Shown: positions 29,887 to 40,523, numbered from the stretch's first letter. The stretch: DNA of 64,000 bases from Escherichia coli (GCF_041886205.1 NZ_CP169029.1), one strand, 5' to 3'. Notes: generated from the sequence alone by a model not told the origin. Made by a program: numbers and translations.

Positions 29887-30849
29887 TTATTGCACGAAGC
29901 GCGAGGTAACGTACTGGCTGTAATCATTCGCTACAGCCGGGACCTTGCCCTGCTCTTTCAAAAACTGCGCGGTGTCGATGATCGCTTTGTTCACCGGTCC
30001 GGTCAGTTCTGCCGTTTGTTGCTGCGGCGTCAGATAGGTATTCCCCTTCACCAGCCCCGGAACGTCACCTTCAGGCACGCCGCTTAAACGCGCCAGTTTG
30101 CTGATGTTTTCCGGCTGTTTCAGCCACGCGTCTGGGTTAGCAATGTACGGTTGCTGAGCATCGATGGCGCTTTTAGCGAACGCTTTCACGACCTCAGGAT
30201 GTTTCTCGGCAAAATCTTTGCGCACCACCCAGACGTCCAGCGTTGGCGCACCCCACTGCCCGACCTGTTCAGAATCGGTCAGCACCTTGCCGTCTTTTTC
30301 CAGGGCGTTAACCGCCGGTGCCCAGACATAAGCACCATCAATATCACCCCGCTGCCATGCGGCGATAATCACGGGCGGCTGCAGGTTCACAATCTCCACT
30401 TGCCCTGGTTTAATCCCCCAGTGTTTCAGCGCCGCCAGCAGGCTGTAGTGGGTGGTGGAGATAAACGGTACGGCAATGCGTTTGCCAATCAAATCTTCGG
30501 GTTTGCTGATAGTTTTCTTTACCACCAGCGCTTCGGAGTTACCCAGTTTTGACGCCAGCAAGAAGACTTCAATCGGCACCTGTTGGCTGGCTGCAACCGC
30601 TAATGGGCTGGAACCGAGGTTGCCGATTTGCACGTCGCCAGAAGCCAGCGCCCGCACGATGCTGGCTCCGCTGTCAAACTTACGCCAGTCCACGCTCGCC
30701 CCGCTCTCTTTAGCAAAGGTGTTGTCGGCCTGAGCCACCTTCGCCGGTTCGGCGGAGGTTTGATAGGCCACGGTGACGTTCACCGCCTGTGCCTGAAAAG
30801 CGATGAATGCCAGTGCGGCAAGAAGTGTGTTACGCGATGAAATTGCCAT
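29887..30849 (-). CDS. tauA: Taurine ABC transporter periplasmic binding protein
   Basis: 320-aa SBP with signal peptide; first gene of tauABCD. Confidence 0.93.
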   Translation of the reverse strand: MAISSRNTLLAALAFIAFQAQAVNVTVAYQTSAEPAKVAQADNTFAKESGASVDWRKFDSGASIVRALASGDVQIGNLGSSPLAVAASQQVPIEVFLLASKLGNSEALVVKKTISKPEDLIGKRIAVPFISTTHYSLLAALKHWGIKPGQVEIVNLQPPVIIAAWQRGDIDGAYVWAPAVNALEKDGKVLTDSEQVGQWGAPTLDVWVVRKDFAEKHPEVVKAFAKSAIDAQQPYIANPDAWLKQPENISKLARLSGVPEGDVPGLVKGNTYLTPQQQTAELTGPVNKAIIDTAQFLKEQGKVPAVANDYSQYVTSRFVQ

Positions 30850-31151
30850 GATTGTCTGCTCCCCTGTCTTGTTATGGGAGCAGTATTTCGTTGCGGGTCA
30901 TTTTGATAAAGGAATTAAAACGTCTTGTTAAGAACAAAGCGTTTTTAGAAAAAAATCGGCAATGGTTAGCGAGTTTGCGCATTTTGCGGTTTTGGCGAAC
31001 GTAGCACGCCGATTCACAAACCAGATAAGATATTCGCGCTCCGGCAAATTATTGCCATTTTGTTACATCCATTCCATATCTGTCGCTGGTTGATTGCCAG
31101 CGCCGCGCCGTGATGCATGATAGGAGAATTAGATAATAAGAGAAGAAAAGT

Positions 31152-31781
31152 ATGATTCGGGTAGTGCTGGTGGATGACCATGTGGTGGTGCGCTCTGGCT
31201 TCGCACAATTACTCTCTCTGGAAGACGATCTGGAGGTCATTGGTCAGTACAGTAGTGCCGCGCAGGCATGGTCGGCATTAATCCGTGATGACGTTAATGT
31301 TGCGGTCATTGATATTGCCATGCCGGACGAAAACGGCCTCAGTTTGCTTAAGCGCCTGCGTGCACAAAAACCGCAATTTCGCGCCATTATTCTTAGCATT
31401 TATGACGCGCCAACCTTTGTGCAAAGCGCGCTGGATGCCGGTGCCAGCGGGTATTTAACCAAACGCTGTGGGCCGGAAGAGTTAGTGCAGGCGGTGCGCT
31501 CGGTCGGGCTGGGCGGGCATTATCTCTGTGCCGATGCAATTCGTGCTTTACGCGGCGGCGGGCAACCTGCCCAGGCGCTGGAAATTCTCACCCCACGAGA
31601 ACGTGAAGTGTTTGATTTACTGGTCAAAGGTGACAGCGTTAAAGAGATCGCCTTTAAACTCGAACTCAGTCATAAAACGGTACATGTGCATCGCGCCAAT
31701 GTGCTGGGAAAACTGAACTGCCATAGCACCATTGAACTGGTGCATTTTGCGCTCGACCACCATCTGCTGGCGGGGCATTAA
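31152..31781 (+). CDS. NarL/FixJ-family response regulator, UhpA-like
   Basis: Receiver domain (VVLVDDH ... IDIAMPD) plus C-terminal LuxR-type HTH (LTPREREVFDLLVKGDSVKEIAFKLELSHKTVHVHRANVLGKL); first gene of a six-gene cluster. Confidence 0.85.
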   Translation: MIRVVLVDDHVVVRSGFAQLLSLEDDLEVIGQYSSAAQAWSALIRDDVNVAVIDIAMPDENGLSLLKRLRAQKPQFRAIILSIYDAPTFVQSALDAGASGYLTKRCGPEELVQAVRSVGLGGHYLCADAIRALRGGGQPAQALEILTPREREVFDLLVKGDSVKEIAFKLELSHKTVHVHRANVLGKLNCHSTIELVHFALDHHLLAGH

Positions 31782-33322
31782 TGTCGCGCAATCTTCGTCA
31801 TTGGGTGGTTTCGTTGTTTATTGTGCTGGCCTGGGGAACCGGCTGGCTGATGCTGTGGACGCTCAGCTTTTATCTGACCAATAACGGTCAACAGGCGGCG
31901 CTGTTTCTGCCGCACGGGGTTTACCTCGCCCTTCTTATTTTACTTGCACGCCGCTACTGGCCTGCGCTGGTGCTCCCCCCTTTGCTGATGATGTTCTGGC
32001 TCCATAGCGAACAGCTATTGAACGGCTATCTCATGCTGGCAACGCCGGTTATTAGCCTGTTTCCTGCCATCCTTGCGCAAAACTTCTGGCACCGTTTTCC
32101 ACTTTACTGGCAGCGTCTGACGTTGCTGTTAGCCACGGTCACAACAGCTTCATTGCTGAATACCGCCCTGCTCTCCCCTTTTATGTCAGGCCCAATAATG
32201 CTGCCGGGTTTGACCTCATTTACCGGAGGCGTATTACTGACGCCGTTTGTCTATCTTATCTTTGAGTTTCTGCGCCAGCAGCATCGCTACCAGCTCCTGG
32301 GACTCGATACGCATAATCCCCCCTTGCGTACCTCTTTAATCATCTGGTGTAGCCTGTTTTTTATTATTGGTATCGGCACTCAGATGGTGCTGTCACCTGA
32401 AATTGAACGTCTGCTGTTGATCGTAGTTTTTCTACCCAATGTGGTGATGGCGTGGAAATTTGGCTGGCAAGGTGGCGTACTCTCCGGGCTTTTGGGCAGC
32501 ATGATGATCACCATCGCCCGCCAGATTGGCGTGGGCTTTAGTAACCTGGTGGAGCTGGAGATTTTCCTCGCGACCCAGGCATTGCTGGGAATTGGCCTGG
32601 GCATTGCCATCAGCCGCCAGCAACATCTGGCGCTAAACCTGCACCATTACCGACAACGGCTGGAGGCCGAGCTGGCAGCGCGGCGGGCATTAGCGGAAAA
32701 GCTGATCCACACCGAGGAGGACACGCGAAAAAACCTGGCGAGGGAGCTGCACGACGAAATCGGTCAAAACATCACCGCCATTCAGATCCAGTCGCAACTG
32801 GTGAAGCGAGCGCGCGATCCGGCGCAAATTCAATCCGCAGCCAGCCAAATCAATGAACTCGCTCGCCGCATTCATCTCTCCACCCGCCAGTTGCTGCGCC
32901 AGCTGCGGCCCCCCGCGCTTGATGAACTGACATTCCGCGAAGCGTTGTTGCATCTGATTAATGAATTTGCCTTTAGTGAACGCGGCATTCATTGCCAGTT
33001 TTCCTATCAACTGACCTCCACACCAGAAAACGAAACGGTGCGCTTTACCTTGTATCGGTTATTGCAGGAGTTGCTCAATAACGTCTGTAAACACGCCGAA
33101 GCCAGCGAAGTGACGATTATCCTGCGCCAGCAGGGAGAGATATTGCATCTGGAGGTCAGCGACAACGGCGTGGGGATCGCTTGCGGGAAAATGGCTGGAT
33201 TTGGCATTCAGGGGATGCGTGAGCGCGTCAGTGCCCTGGGCGGCGACTTAACGCTCGAAAAACAGCACGGCACGCGGGTAATTGTTAACTTGCCCACAAT
33301 TTTGCAACAAATCGCCGGATAA
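31781..33322 (+). CDS. Sensor histidine kinase with polytopic N-terminal membrane domain, UhpB-like
   Basis: About 8 predicted TM helices, then HisKA_3-type H box (LARELHDEIGQNITAI) and HATPase_c motifs (VSDNGVGI, GFGIQGMRERV); start overlaps the regulator stop by 1 nt. Confidence 0.85.
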   Translation: MSRNLRHWVVSLFIVLAWGTGWLMLWTLSFYLTNNGQQAALFLPHGVYLALLILLARRYWPALVLPPLLMMFWLHSEQLLNGYLMLATPVISLFPAILAQNFWHRFPLYWQRLTLLLATVTTASLLNTALLSPFMSGPIMLPGLTSFTGGVLLTPFVYLIFEFLRQQHRYQLLGLDTHNPPLRTSLIIWCSLFFIIGIGTQMVLSPEIERLLLIVVFLPNVVMAWKFGWQGGVLSGLLGSMMITIARQIGVGFSNLVELEIFLATQALLGIGLGIAISRQQHLALNLHHYRQRLEAELAARRALAEKLIHTEEDTRKNLARELHDEIGQNITAIQIQSQLVKRARDPAQIQSAASQINELARRIHLSTRQLLRQLRPPALDELTFREALLHLINEFAFSERGIHCQFSYQLTSTPENETVRFTLYRLLQELLNNVCKHAEASEVTIILRQQGEILHLEVSDNGVGIACGKMAGFGIQGMRERVSALGGDLTLEKQHGTRVIVNLPTILQQIAG

Positions 33323-33394
33323 CCAGGAAAAAATCTTAGGCATCCCGGATTTTCTCTCATCCCCTTTCACTTTCATTTTCATATAGTCAGCAAC

Positions 33395-34711
33395 ATGGAG
33401 ACAACCATGCACGCGCGTTCAGCGAGAGAAATTAATCAATGCTACCGGACATTACGTCCGCGATTGCTGATGTGCATGATTATTGGCTACGCCGCATTTT
33501 ATCTGACGCGAAAAAGCGTGAATTACGTCCTTCCGGCGCTGCAAACCGACCTCGGACTGGATAAAGGCGACATTGGCCTGCTGGGTTCGCTGTTTTATCT
33601 CAGCTACGGATTGTCGAAATTTACCGCCGGACTGTGGCATGACAGCCACGGACAACGCGGTTTTATGGGCGTCGGCTTGTTCACCACCGGATTATTGAAC
33701 GTGGTGTTTGCCTTTGGCGAATCACTTACGCTTTTGCTTGTGGTCTGGACACTGAACGGATTTTTTCAGGGCTGGGGATGGCCACCGTGTGCTCGCTTGC
33801 TGACCCACTGGTACTCACGCAATGAGCGCGGTTTCTGGTGGGGCTGCTGGAATATGTCGATCAACATTGGCGGAGCGATTATTCCGCTAATTAGTGCCTT
33901 TGCCGCCCACTGGTGGGGCTGGCAGGCCGCGATGCTGACACCGGGGATAATCAGCATGGCATTAGGGATCTGGTTAACGCTACAACTCAAAGGCACGCCC
34001 CAGGAAGAGGGATTACCGACAGTTGGTCACTGGCGTCACGATCCGCTGGAGTTACGTCAGGAACAACAAAGTCCGCCGATGGGGCTGTGGCAAATGTTGC
34101 GCACCACCATGCTGCAAAATCCGCTGATCTGGCTACTGGGCGTCTCTTATGTACTGGTTTATGTGATCCGGATTGCGCTTAACGACTGGGGCAATATCTG
34201 GCTGACGGAAAGCCACGGCGTCAACCTGCTCAGCGCCAACGCCACGGTAATGCTGTTTGAAGTGGGCGGCTTACTCGGCGCGTTATTTGCCGGATGGGGA
34301 TCGGATTTGCTGTTTAGCGGGCAACGAGCGCCAATGATTTTGCTGTTCACGCTGGGGTTGATGGTGTCAGTCGCTGCACTGTGGCTGGCACCGGTTCATC
34401 ACTACGCTCTGCTGGCAGTGTGCTTTTTTACCGTAGGCTTTTTCGTCTTTGGTCCACAAATGCTGATTGGACTTGCGGCGGTGGAGTGTGGGCACAAAGC
34501 TGCGGCGGGTTCAATCACCGGATTTCTCGGCCTGTTCGCTTACCTTGGCGCGGCGCTGGCAGGCTGGCCACTGTCGCTGGTCATCGAACGCTACGGCTGG
34601 TCGGGAATGTTCAGTTTACTCTCGGTCGCCGCAGTACTTATGGGTTTACTGCTGATGCCGTTACTGATGGCGGGCATCACCACCACTCACGCTCGAAGGA
34701 TAAAACAATGA
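33395..34711 (+). CDS. MFS organophosphate:phosphate antiporter-family protein, UhpC-like (probable membrane sensor)
   Basis: Strong resemblance to UhpC/UhpT/GlpT family (YLTRKS, FFQGWGWPPCARLLTHWYS, NDWGN, FFVFGPQMLIG); sits in the uhpC position after the regulator and kinase. Confidence 0.85.
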   Translation: METTMHARSAREINQCYRTLRPRLLMCMIIGYAAFYLTRKSVNYVLPALQTDLGLDKGDIGLLGSLFYLSYGLSKFTAGLWHDSHGQRGFMGVGLFTTGLLNVVFAFGESLTLLLVVWTLNGFFQGWGWPPCARLLTHWYSRNERGFWWGCWNMSINIGGAIIPLISAFAAHWWGWQAAMLTPGIISMALGIWLTLQLKGTPQEEGLPTVGHWRHDPLELRQEQQSPPMGLWQMLRTTMLQNPLIWLLGVSYVLVYVIRIALNDWGNIWLTESHGVNLLSANATVMLFEVGGLLGALFAGWGSDLLFSGQRAPMILLFTLGLMVSVAALWLAPVHHYALLAVCFFTVGFFVFGPQMLIGLAAVECGHKAAAGSITGFLGLFAYLGAALAGWPLSLVIERYGWSGMFSLLSVAAVLMGLLLMPLLMAGITTTHARRIKQ

Positions 34712-35739
34712 AAATGACCTTTACCTCTACTCTGATTGCTTCTGCCGTTGCGCTGGCGACTTTAACGGGTGCCGCGCAGGCGAAAGGCCGGCTGGTGGTC
34801 TATTGCAGCGCCACCAATGAAATGTGTGAAGCTGAAACCAAAGCGTTTGGCGAGAAATATGATGTGAAAACTTCATTTATCCGCAACGGTTCCGGAAGCA
34901 CCCTGGCAAAAGTCGATGCTGAAAAGAAAAACCCCCAGGCTGACGTCTGGTATGGCGGCACTTTAGACCCGCAATCGCAGGCCGGCGAGATGGGCCTGCT
35001 ACAGGCGTATAAATCCCCTAACCTTGAGCAGATCATGGAGAAATTCCGCGATCCGGCAAAAGTGAAAGGGAATCTGTCCTCTGCCGTATATGTGGGGATC
35101 CTCGGTTTTGGCGTAAACACCGATCGTCTGAAAGAGAAAGACCTGCCGGTGCCGAAGTGCTGGAAAGATCTCACCAAACCGGAATATAAAGGCGAAATTC
35201 AAATTGCCGATCCGCAAAGTTCCGGTACTGCCTACACCGCGCTGGCTACTTTTGCGCAGCTGTGGGGGGAAGATCAGGCCTTTGATTATCTAAAACAACT
35301 GAACGCCAACGTCTCCCAGTATACCAAATCAGGCATAGCCCCGGCACGTAACGCCGCTCGCGGCGAAACGGCGATTGGTATTGGCTTCCTGCATGACTAC
35401 TCGCTGGAAAAAGAACAGGGTGCGCCGCTGGAGTTGATTTCCCCTTGTGAAGGTACGGGCTATGAAATTGGCGGCGTCAGCATTCTGAAAGGCGCGCGCA
35501 ACCTCGACAATGCCAAACTGTTTGTGGACTGGGTATTATCAAAAGAAGCTCAGGAACTGGCGTGGAAGAAAGGGAAGTCTTATCAGATCCTGACCAATAC
35601 CACCGCCGAAACGTCGCCAAATTCGCTGAAGCTCGACGACCTGAAATTAATCAACTACGACATGGATAAATACGGTTCCACGGATGTTCGTAAGGCATTG
35701 ATTAATAAATGGGTTAGCGAAGTGAAGATGGGTAAGTAA
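34708..35739 (+). CDS. ABC transporter periplasmic substrate-binding protein, AfuA/FbpA-like
   Basis: 343 aa with signal peptide MKMTFTSTLIASAVALATLTGAAQA; ATG overlaps the MFS stop (ATGA); the longer track ORF (from 34381) overlaps the MFS gene and is rejected. Confidence 0.8.
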   Translation: MKMTFTSTLIASAVALATLTGAAQAKGRLVVYCSATNEMCEAETKAFGEKYDVKTSFIRNGSGSTLAKVDAEKKNPQADVWYGGTLDPQSQAGEMGLLQAYKSPNLEQIMEKFRDPAKVKGNLSSAVYVGILGFGVNTDRLKEKDLPVPKCWKDLTKPEYKGEIQIADPQSSGTAYTALATFAQLWGEDQAFDYLKQLNANVSQYTKSGIAPARNAARGETAIGIGFLHDYSLEKEQGAPLELISPCEGTGYEIGGVSILKGARNLDNAKLFVDWVLSKEAQELAWKKGKSYQILTNTTAETSPNSLKLDDLKLINYDMDKYGSTDVRKALINKWVSEVKMGK

Positions 35740-35807
35740 ACCCGCATTAGGCGCATTTGCCGGGTGCAGCACAAATGCCTGCCCCGGCCAACCATACCGG
35801 AACTGCT

Positions 35808-37886
35808 ATGTCACAGACACTTGCACTCCATCCCGTGAAAAAGCGGGATGCGATTTTCCTTTGGGTTTTGCTGGGCTGGCTGGCATTTATCCTGTTGCCG
35901 AGCTGGAGTCTCGATTATGGCCTGCTGGAATCCACGAGTGATGAGATCCTCGAGGCTTATGGCTGGTCGCATTTTAATATCAGCTGGCTGTGGTATTTGT
36001 TACCGAGTCTGTTGCTGGTTCGCCCGTTTCGTGAGGCCACACGTGAACAGCGTAGTCGTCATTATTTTGATGCCGGCTGGGCATTGCTCTGTATGGCGTT
36101 TATCGTCATCAGCGCCACCGTGGCTGGACGCGGTTTAGGCTACGCCGCCATCGTGCTGTTTGTTGAATTAGGCGCGATTATGACGCTGGCCTTAACCCGC
36201 CTCGAATGGCTGGGCGGCGACCGCTTCGTGATCGGCTCGCTGATTGCGATTGTGGCGCTGATTGGCATTTTTATCGTCTGGCCGAGCATCGCCATTTTTA
36301 TCCCGATGTTCACCAACGACGCGGGAGAGTTCGCCCCGCTGGCGTTTATGAACGTGCTCTCGCAGGCACATATTGTGCAGGTGATCGTCAACTCTATCGT
36401 CTTGTCGATAGCGGTGGGTATTGGCTGTACCTTCTTCGGTCTGGTACTGGCGATTTATACCACGCGCATCGCCAAACGCAGCGCCATTATTGGCCGCATC
36501 TTTTCCATTCTGCCCATCGTTACACCACCGTTTGTGGTCGGCTTAGGCGTGACACTCATGATGGGGCGCTCCGGCTATATCACGGAGTTTATGGTGGAGT
36601 GGTTTGGGCTGACCAACACCAACTGGCTGTATGGCTTTACCGGGATCTGGCTGGCGCAGGTTCTGGCATTCACGCCAATGGCTTTTATGATCCTCGACGG
36701 GGCCATTAAAACCATTCATCCCTCGCTGGAAGAGGCCTCCTACACCCTGCGCGCCAGCCGCTGGCAAACCTTTAACGGCGTGTTTGTGCCGTTGCTAAAG
36801 CCCGCGCTCGCCAATGCCTTTTTAATCGTCGTGGTACAGTCACTGGCTGATTTCAGTAACCCGCTGGTGCTTGGCGGCAACTTCGACGTACTGGCGACGC
36901 AAATTTACTTCTACATTACCGGCTCGCAGCTGGATTATCAGGCCGCCAGCACGCTTGGTGCTTTCCTGCTGCTGTTCTCGCTGCTGGTGTTCTGCGTCCA
37001 GTATATGTGGATTGGTAAACGCTCTTACGTCACGGTTTCCGGCAAATCCTACCGTGGCGACGTCCAGCCACTACCGGTCACCCTGGTGTGGAGCGTGGTC
37101 GCCATACTTGCGGTATGGATTGCCTTTAACGCCCTGCTCTACGGCAGCATTTTCTACGGCAGCTTCACGGTGAACTGGGGCGTTGACTACACCCTGACGC
37201 TGGATAACTTTATCAAGTTATTTGGTCAGGGGATGAGCGACGGCGCGTGGCCTTCACTGTTGGATACCCTGCTCTACGCCGGGATTGCAGCCCCCATTAC
37301 CGCTATCTTTGGCCTGCTCATCGCCTGGGTGGTGGTGCGTCAACAATTCAAAGGCAAAAAGACCATCGAGTTCACCACCATGCTGTGCTTTGCCGTACCG
37401 GGTACGGTGGCGGGCGTCTCGTATATTCTCGCCTTTAACAGCGCTCCGGTTTATCTCACCGGAACGGCGGCAATTGTGATTATCTCGATGGTGATGCGTA
37501 ACGTTCCGGTGGGCATTCGTGCCGGGATTGCAGGTCTGGGGCAGATCGACAAATCGCTGGATGAAGCCTCACTCAGCCTGCGTGCGGGTTCCCTGCGAAC
37601 CATAACCCACATTTTACTGCCGCTGCTGCGCCCGGCCATTCTCTCGGCCCTGATCTACAGCTTTGTGCGGGCCATCACGACGGTCAGCGCCATCGTCTTT
37701 CTCGTCACGCCGGACACCCGCGTGGCAACAGCCTACATTCTTAACCGCGTTGAAGACGGCGAATATGGCGTAGCTATCGCCTATGGTTCGATTCTGATCG
37801 TGGTGATGCTGGCGATTATTTTCCTCTTTGACTGGCTGATCGGAGAAGCACGTATCTCCCGTTCTAAAGCCAAAAACCAGGCGTAA
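35808..37886 (+). CDS. ABC transporter permease with two fused transmembrane domains, AfuB/FbpB-like
   Basis: About 690 aa with two permease-type halves typical of FbpB/ThiP-type importers; start chosen at [10 protein letters not shown] (alternative upstream start at 35757). Confidence 0.8.
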
Positions 37887-38944
37887 TGGAGCGCACTATG
37901 AGTCAGAAAAATTTTGTGGAACTGCGCAACGTCACTAAACGATTCGGCAGTAATACGGTTATCGACAATATCAATCTCACCATTCCACAAGGGCAAATGG
38001 TGACGCTGCTCGGCCCTTCCGGCTGTGGCAAAACCACCATTCTGCGTCTGGTTGCCGGGCTGGAAAAACCGAGCGAAGGGCAAATTTTTATTGATGGCGA
38101 AGATGTCACGCATCGTTCCATTCAACAGCGCGATATCTGCATGGTGTTTCAGTCATACGCTCTGTTCCCGCATATGTCGCTGGGTGAAAACGTTGGCTAC
38201 GGGCTGAAGATGCTTGGCGTGTCGCGTAGCGAAGTGAAACAGCGGGTGAAGGAGGCGCTGGCAATGGTGGATCTGGAAGGCTTCGAGGACCGCTATGTCG
38301 ATCAGATTTCCGGTGGTCAGCAACAGCGTGTGGCGCTGGCCCGCGCGTTGATCCTCAAACCGAAGGTACTGCTGTTTGATGAGCCGTTAAGTAACCTCGA
38401 TGCCAACCTGCGCCGCAGTATGCGCGATAAGATCCGCGAGCTGCAAAAGCAGTTTAATATCACGTCGCTCTACGTCACTCACGATCAAAGTGAAGCTTTC
38501 GCGGTGTCCGACACCGTACTGGTGATGAATAAAGGTCACATCATGCAGATTGGTTCACCGCAAGATCTCTATCGTCAGCCCGCCTCCCGCTTTATGGCAA
38601 GTTTTATGGGCGACGCCAACCTGTTCCCGGCGAACTTTAGCGAAGAGGATGTCGATATCTACGGTTATCGCCTGCCGCGCGCGGCGCATTTCCCGGCGCA
38701 AGGTAGCGGCACCGTCGGCGTTCGCCCGGAAGCCATCACCTTAAGCAATCACGGCGAAGAGAGTCAGCGTTGTGTTATTCGCCATGTCGCCTACATGGGG
38801 CCGCAGTACGAAGTGACCGTAGAGTGGCATGGACAGGAGATTTTATTACAAGTAAACGCCACCCGTTTACAGCCCGATATTGGTGAGCACTATTACCTCG
38901 AAATCCATCCTTACGGGATGTTTGTTTTAGCGGATGCGGCATAA
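37886..38944 (+). CDS. ABC transporter ATP-binding protein, AfuC/FbpC/PotA-like
   Basis: Walker [11 protein letters not shown]-loop, signature [14 protein letters not shown], Walker [13 protein letters not shown]-terminal TOBE-like domain; start ambiguous between 37886 and 37898. Confidence 0.85.
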
Positions 38945-39026
38945 AAATAGCACATAAACGGTCCCCACCTGTCTTGAGGGACCGTTCACCTGGTTAGGCT
39001 TCGGACAACAATTATTCTCCAGTGTT

Positions 39027-39080
39027 ATATACTATAGGGGGGTATGCATTGACATATAGCATACCCCCCTATAGTATATT
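39027..39080 (+). promoter_or_regulatory. Candidate FrmR operator: inverted repeat with G6/C6 tracts
   Basis: ATATACTATAGGGGGGTATGC ... GCATACCCCCCTATAGTATAT, a near-perfect palindrome 25-75 bp upstream of frmR; the G/C-tract-flanked AT-rich dyad is the operator style of RcnR/FrmR-family repressors. Confidence 0.7.
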
Positions 39081-39103
39081 GCATGCAGATGATGAGGTGC
39101 GAA

Positions 39104-39379
39104 ATGCCCAGTACTCCGGAAGAGAAGAAAAAGGTCCTTACTCGAGTTCGTCGTATTCGAGGGCAGATTGATGCTCTGGAACGGTCGCTGGAGGGTGATG
39201 CCGAATGCCGTGCCATACTCCAACAGATCGCTGCCGTTCGGGGCGCGGCTAACGGGCTGATGGCAGAAGTGCTTGAAAGCCATATCCGGGAAACGTTTGA
39301 CCGAAATGACTGCTACAGCCGCGAAGTCAGCCAATCCGTTGACGACACTATTGAACTGGTTCGTGCCTATCTGAAATAG
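39104..39379 (+). CDS. frmR: Formaldehyde-responsive repressor FrmR (RcnR/CsoR family)
   Basis: 91 aa [31 protein letters not shown]... with the CsoR-family helical bundle; palindromic operator upstream. Confidence 0.9.
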
Positions 39380-39383
39380 CTGA

Positions 39384-40523
<1,140 letters not shown>

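Follow-up and report, generated by a model that had tools for sequence, protein, structure and literature searches.

Sugar phosphates are taken up by the ABC importer AfuABC. The C. rodentium AfuABC binds and transports sugar phosphates (Sit et al. 2015, PMC4546632), and binding and transport of glucose-6-phosphate (G6P), fructose-6-phosphate (F6P) and sedoheptulose-7-phosphate (S7P) were described for both the A. pleuropneumoniae and the C. rodentium proteins (PMC4546632). In A. pleuropneumoniae AfuA, His205, Asp206 and Glu229 coordinate the sugar and Ser37 and Thr150 coordinate the phosphate (PMC4546632). The A. pleuropneumoniae afuABC genes were handled there as a self-standing operon, and the enteric FusKR proteins were only noted as adjacent. 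When we looked in the literature for a tie between FusKR or UhpC-like proteins and afuABC regulation, this remark on adjacency was all that we found.

FusR and FusK are encoded on O-island 20 (OI-20), in the order fusR-fusK-z0461-afuABC. According to reviews and follow-up papers on EHEC, FusK autophosphorylates on L-fucose, and FusR binds the ler promoter, represses ler and the LEE, and represses z0461 rather than activating it. Z0461 has been presented as a fucose importer, the deletion of z0461 being reported to lower growth on fucose, and a 2026 study reports that deletion of fusKR abolishes the fucose-dependent LEE repression. Reviews describe FusKR as limited to O157:H7 and recently acquired, 'possibly from E. 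faecalis'.

In this study we compared an E. coli version of this locus with OI-20, with AfuABC and with the E. coli Uhp system, in which UhpA, UhpB and UhpC belong together with the antiporter UhpT. The window is the whole stretch of DNA that was analysed, 64,000 nt in length, and all coordinates refer to it. The locus itself is known; what is new is the conservation of its six genes, a UhpA-type box, a CRP-like site, the uhpT-like spacing of these elements and a DNA-recognition helix identical to that of UhpA.

Results

The six-gene locus

Six co-directional ORFs on the + strand were found at 31152-38944, as the first-pass annotation had claimed (Table 1). This is the OI-20 cassette, which has already been described: at the tauA/frmR junction of O157:H7 Sakai the six genes recur in this order (ECs0418-ECs0413, with Z0460-Z0458 corresponding to afuABC; the mapping between Z and ECs gene numbers was cross-checked with the EDL933 table). 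The two loci align without gaps over 8233 nt with 97.35% DNA identity and 97.3-99.7% amino acid identity, and the window holds a separate allele with about 2.7% DNA divergence. It recurs at 99.9-100% identity in 10 other-source complete genomes, isolated from bear, pig, frog, human, bovine, pigeon and poultry, and all their chromosomes measure 4.57-4.82 Mb.

Table 1. Features of the locus, in window coordinates
Feature	Position	Strand	Description	Basis
Accessory segment	30888..39001	.	Between tauA and frmR, in place of K-12 yaiO-yaiX-yaiP-ykiC-yaiS	Alignments with K-12 and Sakai; annotation of K-12, Sakai and LHM10-1
Putative regulator-kinase promoter region	31061..31124	+	TGTTA-N6-NNACA 31061-31076; -35-like TTGCCA 31094-31099; -10-like CATGAT 31116-31121	Consensus scan
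NarL/FixJ-type response regulator	31152..31781	+	FusR (Z0463/ECs0418) orthologue, UhpA paralogue	
MASE1 membrane histidine kinase	31781..33322	+	FusK (Z0462/ECs0417) orthologue, UhpB paralogue	
CRP-like site	33283..33298	+	TGTTAACTTGCCCACA; inside kinase 3' coding end, codons 501-506	
UhpA-box-like 17-bp quasi-palindrome	33323..33339	+	CCAGGAAAAAATCTTAG; begins right after kinase stop codon	
Candidate core promoter of MFS-afuABC unit	33355..33387	+	Invariant TCTCATCC 33355-33362; -10 TATAGT 33382-33387	Conserved columns
UhpC-type MFS protein	33407..34711 (alternative ATG 33395)	+	Z0461/ECs0416 orthologue	
AfuA	34708..35739	+	Periplasmic hexose/heptose-phosphate binding protein	PDB matches, ligand residues
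AfuB	35808..37886	+	Fused two-domain ABC permease	Two BPD_transp_1 domains
AfuC	37898..38944 (alternative ATG 37886)	+	ABC ATPase with TOBE_2 tail	ABC_tran+TOBE_2
Inverted repeat after afuC	38958..38985	+	8-bp stem, without T-run	Sequence

Alignment with K-12 lost homology over about 30888 to 39001, and the frmR-tauA interval of K-12 holds yaiO-yaiX(IS2)-yaiP-ykiC-yaiS, in agreement with the replacement proposed earlier. The segment had also been called accessory relative to K-12. This is correct at the tauA/frmR junction; elsewhere in K-12, prophage CP4-6 retains afuC and an IS1-truncated afuB. Neither an integrase nor an IS was found in the accessory segment, and no Rfam family matched over 30000-40000.

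The regulator and kinase genes overlap by 1 nt (TAATG) and the MFS and binding-protein genes by 4 nt (ATGA), both as first reported. A third reported overlap, of 1 nt between the permease and ATPase genes, exists only if ATG 37886 is taken as the afuC start; in RefSeq and most orthologues the gene begins at 37898, with GGAG 5 nt upstream, and an 11-nt gap separates it from the permease gene. The gap between afuA and afuB is 68 nt. From co-direction and overlaps, one operon or two tightly linked ones had been proposed. However, the kinase and MFS genes are 84 nt apart and the spacer is promoter-like, and therefore the six genes look like two transcription units, one nested in the other, and not like a single simple operon.

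The AfuABC importer

AfuA matched the solved AfuA structures (PDB 4R72-4R75, E=1.9e-169; 8x1a, E=2e-173). Its residues S62/T174/H229/D230/E253 correspond to S37/T150/H205/D206/E229 of A. pleuropneumoniae AfuA, that is, all five sugar-phosphate ligands, and these were kept in 80/80 orthologues from the closest 80 of 348 species. The gene for AfuA is followed in one co-directional unit by those for a fused two-domain permease (98.7% amino acid identity to ECs0414) and an ATPase with a TOBE domain (99.4% to ECs0413), which is the afuA-afuB-afuC layout of A. pleuropneumoniae and C. rodentium. Judged by its residues and layout, the AfuABC of the window is probably an importer of G6P, F6P and S7P, an activity known experimentally from close orthologues. 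The first-pass annotation had named this importer type, mentioned its description in Citrobacter and EHEC-type enterics (PMC4546632) and suspected a mis-annotation as iron uptake, all of which proved right.

RefSeq still labels AfuC 'fbpC ferric ABC transporter ATP-binding protein'. Under this annotation the genes would encode a ferric-iron uptake system of the FbpABC/SfuABC type, and AfuC indeed scores 698 bits against NCBIfam NF008513, named 'ferric', while AfuA has weak similarity to FbpA/HitA (E of about 1e-11 to 1e-13). FbpABC, HitABC and SfuABC share with AfuABC the cluster-D binding-protein fold family and the succession of binding protein, fused permease and ATPase. However, none of the four iron ligands of hFbpA (1MRP sequence; H9/E57/Y195/Y196) is kept in AfuA, where MAFFT and phmmer agree in placing T36/G84/L228/H229 at these positions, against five of five sugar-phosphate ligands. 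The ligand set and the match to solved AfuA refute the ferric reading for practical purposes, and with an experimental reassignment already published (PMC4546632) we regard its probability as negligible.

The regulator and the kinase

The regulator and the kinase are the published FusR and FusK of OI-20, with 99.5% and 97.3% amino acid identity to ECs0418 and ECs0417 of Sakai, respectively, at the same tauA/frmR locus. This identity, and with it the fucose-sensor and LEE-repressor roles, had been missed at first. What had been seen correctly is that the first three genes have the order and domain content of uhpA-uhpB-uhpC: the regulator, the kinase (Pfam MASE1+HisKA_3+HATPase_c) and the MFS protein best match UhpA, UhpB and UhpC. 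The two systems have the same three protein types in the same order and a 1-nt A/B overlap in both, and the DNA-recognition helix KTVHVHRAN of the regulator is identical to that of UhpA. However, amino acid identities to UhpA (K-12), UhpB and UhpC are only 48%, 34% and 53%. The best NCBIfam match of the regulator is UhpA NF007685 with 193 bits (cut-off 258) and that of the kinase is UhpB NF008649 with 376 bits (cut-off 408). Because both are under the equivalog cut-offs, it should not be assumed that the signal is the same as in the Uhp system.

A candidate uhpT-type promoter

Across 73 distinct spacers the box CCAGGAAAAAATCTTAG stands out as a conserved footprint; TCTCATCC, the -10 element and the Shine-Dalgarno sequence share this conservation. 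A position weight matrix (PWM) of the box scored 27 bits at this site, the sole match of at least 8 bits within the 64-kb window, whereas nothing in 400 kb of random sequence reached 10 bits. Strong matches in 1.5 Mb of flanking DNA fell at the spacer, apart from one further strong match in one locus. On the K-12 uhpT promoter the PWM gave 17.3 bits at about -64, with 14/17 bases identical to the box; this is the UhpA strong site of that promoter, which extends from -80 to -50. In E. coli the box has a degenerate right arm (TCTTAG vs TCCTGG).

The CRP-like site TGTTAACTTGCCCACA has two mismatches to TGTGA-N6-TCACA and was kept in 76/79 sequences compared. Among all synonymous codon columns of the kinase gene, five of the six with the lowest entropy fall in residues 502-510, and by this measure the site lies under synonymous-site constraint. 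Its left half is poor (TGTTA), and it could belong to another factor.

The distance to the -10 element is 91.5 nt from the centre of the CRP-like site, the same as for the uhpT CRP site, 27 nt from TCTCA here and in uhpT, and 51 nt from the box compared with 52 nt in uhpT. All spacings equal those of uhpT to within 1 bp, and a candidate UhpA box with an upstream CRP-like site is present, in a sequence and a geometry that match K-12 uhpT. Transcription of the MFS-afuABC unit would start near 33394. The spacers of the window and of Sakai differ by point changes alone: there are two mismatches, both left of TCTCATCC, and the box differs at one base. Both loci keep the conserved promoter elements undamaged.

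In the Uhp system the regulated promoter follows the C gene, whereas here it would lie between the B and C genes, partly embedded in the kinase coding region, unlike that of uhpT. The regulated transporter would be an ATP-driven ABC system here and is the UhpT antiporter there. The earlier statement that an ABC importer takes the uhpT position is therefore not exact: the uhpT-type promoter precedes the UhpC-like gene, so that this gene itself would be inside the regulated operon. The A. pleuropneumoniae genes were described as a self-standing operon, whereas the window has afuA in translational coupling with a UhpC-type gene that follows this promoter.

About 105 nt upstream of the regulator gene are conserved across genera and differing insertion contexts, and the spacing of the elements in this region was constant in 44/45 loci having both. 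Sites called by a generic promoter/terminator scan were no more numerous than in shuffled sequence; of these, only TTGCCA-16-CATGAT ahead of the regulator gene gains weight, and it does so through conservation. The 17-bp box was also sought ahead of this gene, as a sign of autoregulation, but the PWM had no match there that reached 8 bits. The TGTTA-N6-NNACA element there reads TGTTAC-N4-GTAACA in some genera, and this form, together with the poor left half-sites, makes a factor other than CRP possible. The inverted repeat after afuC may be the transcript end; its fold was no better than shuffles (z = -1.16) and the terminator scan made no call there.

The MFS protein

The MFS protein has 99.5% amino acid identity to ECs0416, 53% to UhpC and 29% to UhpT. 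It scored 585.5 bits against NF008661 (UhpC subfamily), above the cut-off of 564, while the UhpT and GlpT models gave scores far under their own cut-offs. It agrees with UhpC at 123 UhpC-specific positions and with UhpT at 29 UhpT-specific ones, and the positions of the UhpT pair D388/K391 are T/L, as in UhpC. By these sequence measures the protein is of the UhpC type and not of the UhpT type, as the first-pass annotation had placed it.

Its gene takes the place of the regulated transporter, after a candidate uhpT-type promoter, which raises the question of whether the protein is a working organophosphate/Pi antiporter instead of a sensor. In that case the MASE1 kinase would sense alone and the cassette would co-induce a low-affinity antiporter and a high-affinity ABC system. 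The residues aligned to R46, K82 and R275 of UhpT are kept in the MFS protein, and UhpT transport needs these residues. The UhpC clade includes transporters, for example the chlamydial HPTcp, and weak transport of G6P is reported even for UhpC of E. coli (work of Schwoppe et al.). The score above the curated UhpC-receptor cut-off, the UhpC-specific positions and the loss of the D388/K391 pair speak for a receptor, and canonical UhpB is not known to sense without UhpC. We consider the antiporter quite improbable and prefer the reading of the MFS protein as a UhpC-type sensor.

Distribution of the cassette and the fucose model

The cassette was found in 518/5426 complete E. coli genomes, which belong to several lineages, and at least 73 further species of enterobacteria have it. 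Loci were surveyed in 80 species, the closest 80 of 348 species matches, ranging from Citrobacter to Yersinia, Erwinia and Brenneria. Among these, all 73 loci not cut by contig ends had the same six genes in the same order; thus the cassette is not EHEC-specific, and we newly show here that it is widespread in Enterobacterales. It was also found in plant and insect associates (Erwinia, Pantoea, Brenneria, Rahnella and Ewingella). In 74/76 loci the kinase and MFS genes were 83-90 nt apart, and most MFS-afuA gaps lay between -4 and +60 nt.

These results bear on the published model, in which FusK senses L-fucose directly, FusR mainly represses ler/LEE, the fuc genes and z0461, Z0461 is a fucose importer, and AfuABC is a mere neighbour without regulatory tie. 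In its favour are the experiments cited above, namely fucose-stimulated FusK autophosphorylation, FusR at the ler promoter, the LEE repression lost in the fusKR deletion and the reduced growth on fucose of the z0461 deletion, each as reported. However, the six genes stay together in every complete locus of the survey, including those of plant and insect associates, and the MFS gene overlaps or closely abuts afuA. The promoter ahead of the MFS gene copies that of uhpT, which is an activated promoter, and the published 29-nt FusR site from ler had no match to the box PWM. A protein of the UhpC subfamily of organophosphate-type MFS proteins, with the equivalents of UhpT R46/K82/R275 kept, would be odd for a neutral sugar. 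RNA-seq of EDL933 in bovine gut contents shows a joint increase of afuB, z0461 and fusK; that fusKR and z0461 go up together in gut contents is also remarked on by the authors of the study. As a full account of the locus, the published model seems unlikely to us.

Discussion

The promoter and comparative results favour Uhp-like control of Afu, which was the functional idea of the first-pass annotation. We propose that the regulator, the MASE1 kinase and the UhpC-type MFS protein form a paralogous Uhp-type signalling module. The regulator-kinase pair would be transcribed from its own conserved sigma-70-type promoter and, because there is no terminator after the kinase gene, read-through probably gives basal expression of the MFS protein and Afu. 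The 84-nt spacer and the last 40 nt of the kinase gene would act as a uhpT-type activator-dependent promoter with four elements: the CRP-like site at about -103, the UhpA-box palindrome at about -63, TCTCA at about -39 and the -10 element. Phosphorylated regulator would bind the palindrome and activate z0461-afuABC. By analogy with the Uhp system, and given the cargo of the importer, the inducer is most likely an external hexose phosphate sensed via the MFS protein. Uptake would then be induced by the signal and subject to catabolite modulation, with the MFS sensor under positive feedback. Taken as a whole, the explanation that a Uhp-type module drives MFS-afuABC from a uhpT-type promoter appears to us probable, by a modest measure.

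Since FusKR has been published as an L-fucose sensor, sugar-phosphate sensing contradicts the label in the literature. It is conceivable that FusKR is no EHEC-specific acquisition and supplies the regulatory half of an old enterobacterial cassette of Uhp paralogues, with activation of z0461-afuABC from a uhpT-type promoter partly in fusK as its main output and external sugar phosphate, via Z0461, as its main input. On this view the fucose response of EHEC and its LEE repression would be secondary, reflecting either wiring specific to that lineage or cross-talk with UhpA, whose recognition helix and box are the same. We put this wider view forward tentatively, as a serious possibility that stops short of being probable.

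In conclusion, we found that the accepted description of FusKR is in tension with the comparative evidence, that is, the wide spread of the cassette, its constant position beside a sugar-phosphate importer and a promoter copied from uhpT. We also document that databases still label AfuC a ferric transporter. Therapeutic ideas now rest on the activation of FusKR by fucose. If the regulator activates afuABC on hexose phosphates, the physiological role of FusKR, the gut phenotypes of fusK and fusR mutants and a possible cross-talk with UhpA would need to be re-examined.

Results

The window is E. coli chromosomal DNA in which six plus-strand genes lie between tauA and frmR, at the junction where K-12 has yaiO-yaiX(IS2)-yaiP-ykiC-yaiS. 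In the alignment, K-12 homology is absent from ~30888 to ~39001, and no integrase or IS was found in this segment. The first-pass annotation had described the six-gene cassette as a UhpABC-like sensor coupled to an AfuABC importer; the observation was confirmed and the interpretation was supported in part. The regulator/kinase (1 nt) and MFS/binding-protein (4 nt) gene overlaps that it reported were both found in the sequence. Its permease/ATPase overlap exists only with an upstream ATG (37886) and disappears with the ATPase start used by RefSeq and most orthologues, which leaves an 11-nt gap and a GGAG ahead of the start.

Features of the cassette and its flanks (window coordinates)
Feature	Position	Strand	Remarks
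tauA	29887-30849	minus	flanks cassette
Regulator upstream elements	31061-31124		TTGCCA-16-CATGAT and TGTTA-N6-NNACA, fixed spacing
Response regulator	31152-31781	plus	ORF
MASE1 histidine kinase	31781-33322	plus	ORF; Pfam MASE1, HisKA_3, HATPase_c
CRP-like site	33283-33298		TGTTAACTTGCCCACA, within kinase coding region
Box, E. coli version	33323-33339	plus	CCAGGAAAAAATCTTAG, from spacer alignment
MFS protein	33407-34711	plus	ORF
Periplasmic binding protein (AfuA)	34708-35739	plus	ORF
afuA-afuB spacer	35740-35807
Fused permease (AfuB)	35808-37886	plus	ORF; Pfam BPD_transp_1 (two)
ATPase (AfuC)	37898-38944	plus	ORF; Pfam ABC_tran, TOBE_2
Inverted repeat	39025-39080		TATACTATAGGGGGGTATGCATTGACATATAGCATACCCCCCTATAGTATA

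Upstream of tauA (30850-31050), divergence from K-12 begins ~38 nt ahead of the start codon and farther similarity is patchy, so the taurine operon regulatory region differs between cassette-bearing strains (O157 included) and K-12. On the other flank, the long near-perfect inverted repeat overlaps the predicted promoter of frmR (TTGACA-17-TAGTAT). Its conservation extends to K-12 and Sakai, and the repeat presumably serves as the FrmR operator.

The cassette is O-island 20 (OI-20: FusKR, Z0461, AfuABC), an already known locus. ECs0418-ECs0413 of O157:H7 strain Sakai have identical gene content at the identical junction, with 97.35% DNA identity over 8233 nt, gapless, and amino acid identities, from ECs0418 to ECs0413, of 99.5, 97.3, 99.5, 99.7, 98.7 and 99.4%. 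In EDL933, Z0459 is afuB, Z0461 the UhpC-like gene and Z0462 the kinase gene (PMC6199705). Thus, the regulator is FusR, the kinase is FusK and the MFS protein is Z0461; the first-pass annotation did not recognise these identities.

The uhpA-uhpB-uhpC-like gene order proposed there was borne out. The top NCBIfam matches of the three proteins are UhpA (193 bits, below the cut-off of 258), UhpB (376 bits, below 408) and the UhpC receptor subfamily (585.5 bits, above 564); the MFS protein alone passes its curated threshold. Amino acid identities to K-12 UhpA, UhpB and UhpC are 48, 34 and 53%, respectively, and together with the family matches they indicate that the three are Uhp paralogues. The MFS protein sides with UhpC rather than UhpT, to which it is 29% identical: 123 positions are common to it and UhpC only, as against 29 to it and UhpT only. 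It retains the residues aligned with UhpT R46, K82 and R275 and, like UhpC, has T/L at the UhpT D388/K391 pair. The recognition helix of the regulator, KTVHVHRAN, is identical to that of UhpA.

The binding protein matches solved AfuA structures (4R72-4R75, E=1.9e-169; 8X1A, E=2e-173) far more strongly than ferric binding proteins (E about 1e-11 to 1e-13). AfuA binds phosphate through Ser37 and Thr150 and sugar through His205, Asp206 and Glu229, and alanine substitution of any one of the three sugar-coordinating residues abolishes binding (Sit et al., PMC4546632). In the alignment these residues are S62, T174, H229, D230 and E253 of the window protein, invariant in 80 orthologues. The iron ligands of H. 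influenzae FbpA are H9, E57, Y195 and Y196. In alignments with the FbpA sequence, checked against 1MRP/1D9V, the corresponding residues are T36, G84, L228 and H229 (MAFFT and phmmer agree). Because the iron ligands are replaced and the sugar-phosphate ligands are all kept, a ferric-iron importer is very unlikely; the ferric ligand set that the first-pass annotation named as the sign of iron transport is not retained. By every feature testable in the sequence, the importer belongs to AfuABC. As that annotation also expected, an iron label persists for AfuC in RefSeq (fbpC) and in NCBIfam equivalog NF008513 ('ferric ABC transporter ATP-binding protein (fbpC)'). AfuA exceeds the cut-off of no NCBIfam model and scores best with that of a putative 2-aminoethylphosphonate binder. 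RefSeq and NCBIfam have yet to take up the functional reassignment made for AfuABC in 2015.

An AfuA scan of species-representative genomes found relatives in 348 stretches, of which the closest 80 loci were analysed. These are from Citrobacter, Klebsiella, Raoultella, Enterobacter, Serratia, Lelliottia, Leclercia, Buttiauxella, Rahnella, Erwinia, Pantoea, Yersinia, Brenneria, Ewingella and others. Contig ends truncate some of these loci; each of the 73 that are not truncated carries all six genes, with order and strand unchanged. In 74 of 76 loci, 83-90 nt separate the kinase and MFS genes. Between the MFS gene and afuA the distance is mostly -4 to +60 nt, so short that afuABC transcription must come through the MFS gene. 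The afuA-afuB spacer is highly variable in length across species (53-191 nt) beside the fixed kinase-MFS spacer; in E. coli it contains GC-rich inverted repeats, which might stabilise the afuA message.

Alignment of 73 distinct kinase-MFS spacers revealed a 17-bp palindrome directly 3' of the kinase stop codon, which is perfect (CCAGGAATAATTCCTGG) in several distant genera, an invariant TCTCATCC, a conserved -10 element TATAGT and a conserved GGAG Shine-Dalgarno. A PWM of this box has one match of at least 8 bits in the 64-kb window (27 bits) and none of at least 10 bits in 400 kb of random sequence. In the K-12 uhpT promoter it matches CCTGGAAAATTTCTTAG (17.3 bits, 14/17 identical) centred at ~-64. 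The UhpA strong site there extends from -80 to -50; the match is thus at its place, with the CRP site (centre at -103) upstream of it. From this geometry a CRP site was forecast at -103.5 before the search, and a CRP-like site was found centred exactly there, kept in 76 of 79 sequences. Mean kinase codon entropy is 1.15 bits over 298 amino-acid-conserved columns. Six columns lie under 0.15 bits, five of them within residues 502-510, whose one variable codon coincides with the N6 spacer of the CRP-like site. This synonymous-site constraint argues for a DNA element embedded in the gene, just as the uhpT CRP site overlaps the uhpC stop codon. Distances here and at uhpT are 40.5 and 39.5 nt (CRP-like centre to box centre), 51 and 52 nt (box centre to -10), 27 and 27 nt (TCTCA to -10) and 91.5 and 91.5 nt (CRP-like centre to -10), respectively.

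In 1.5 Mb of flanks, strong PWM matches lie at the kinase-MFS spacer with one exception, in Entomohabitans teleogrylli. This perfect palindrome (CCAGGAAATTTTCCTGG, 20.6 bits; L051 16540-16556) is intergenic, 2.3 kb past afuC, with a TGTGATCACA motif nearby, upstream of a 248-aa ORF resembling a class A acid phosphatase by eye-read motifs. The ORF may be a second regulon member, releasing or degrading sugar phosphates.

The ~105 nt preceding the regulator gene are conserved in all contexts and at different insertion sites, from E. coli through to Yersinia and Brenneria. The box PWM found nothing there. TGTTA-N6-NNACA, which reads TGTTAC-N4-GTAACA in some genera, keeps a constant 47.5-nt distance to a -10-like hexamer, CATSAT; its factor could be CRP-like, or the element a LacI/GntR-type operator.

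Discussion

The best-supported mechanism has four parts. The regulator-kinase unit would be transcribed from its own promoter, and read-through would give basal MFS expression. The phosphorylated regulator would then activate a uhpT-type, catabolite-modulated promoter driving MFS-afuABC, so that the MFS protein would be under positive feedback and G6P, F6P and S7P would be taken up with high affinity by ATP-driven transport. We infer that the regulator binds, in which direction it acts and which ligand is the inducer.

The published EHEC model is real counter-evidence: fucose is reported as the signal, FusR as a repressor of z0461 and ler, and Z0461 as an importer of fucose under FusKR repression. 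A joint rise of fusKR, z0461 and afuB is seen in bovine gut contents (PMC6199705). By PWM comparison, the FusR site at ler is unlike the conserved box. Canonical UhpB cannot sense without UhpC, so kinase-only assays would leave hexose-phosphate sensing possible. UhpA and the regulator have the same recognition helix and their boxes are nearly identical, so either promoter could plausibly be subject to cross-talk.

Reviews confine FusKR to O157:H7 as a recent acquisition, possibly from E. faecalis. The distribution of the cassette contradicts this. Among 5426 complete E. coli genomes, 518 carry the cassette in full. Its alleles fall into at least three classes: 99.9-100% identity (10 genomes, diverse hosts), ~97.3-97.8% (including O157:H7 and O145) and ~92-94% (e.g., an ST69 O15:H18 isolate and a river isolate), the last with an adjoining tyrosine integrase. 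In the river isolate D7 (L086 11793-15448) the integrase adjoins tRNA-Phe and mmuM-mmuP-IS5 follows the intact cassette. The K-12 cryptic prophage CP4-6 (NC_000913.3 275325-279930) carries IS5-mmuP-mmuM-afuC-afuB', afuB being cut by IS1, exactly the right end of the D7 arrangement. Only this 18% remnant (85.6% identity) is present in about 458 complete genomes and in some plasmids.

In conclusion, the regulatory anatomy of the kinase-MFS spacer and the embedded CRP-like site are new in this analysis. Comparative evidence suggests that the Uhp-like module and AfuABC belong together as a single, ancient functional unit under a uhpT-type promoter. This reading is what is added to a known locus and, as an alternative to the current FusKR view, it can be tested directly.
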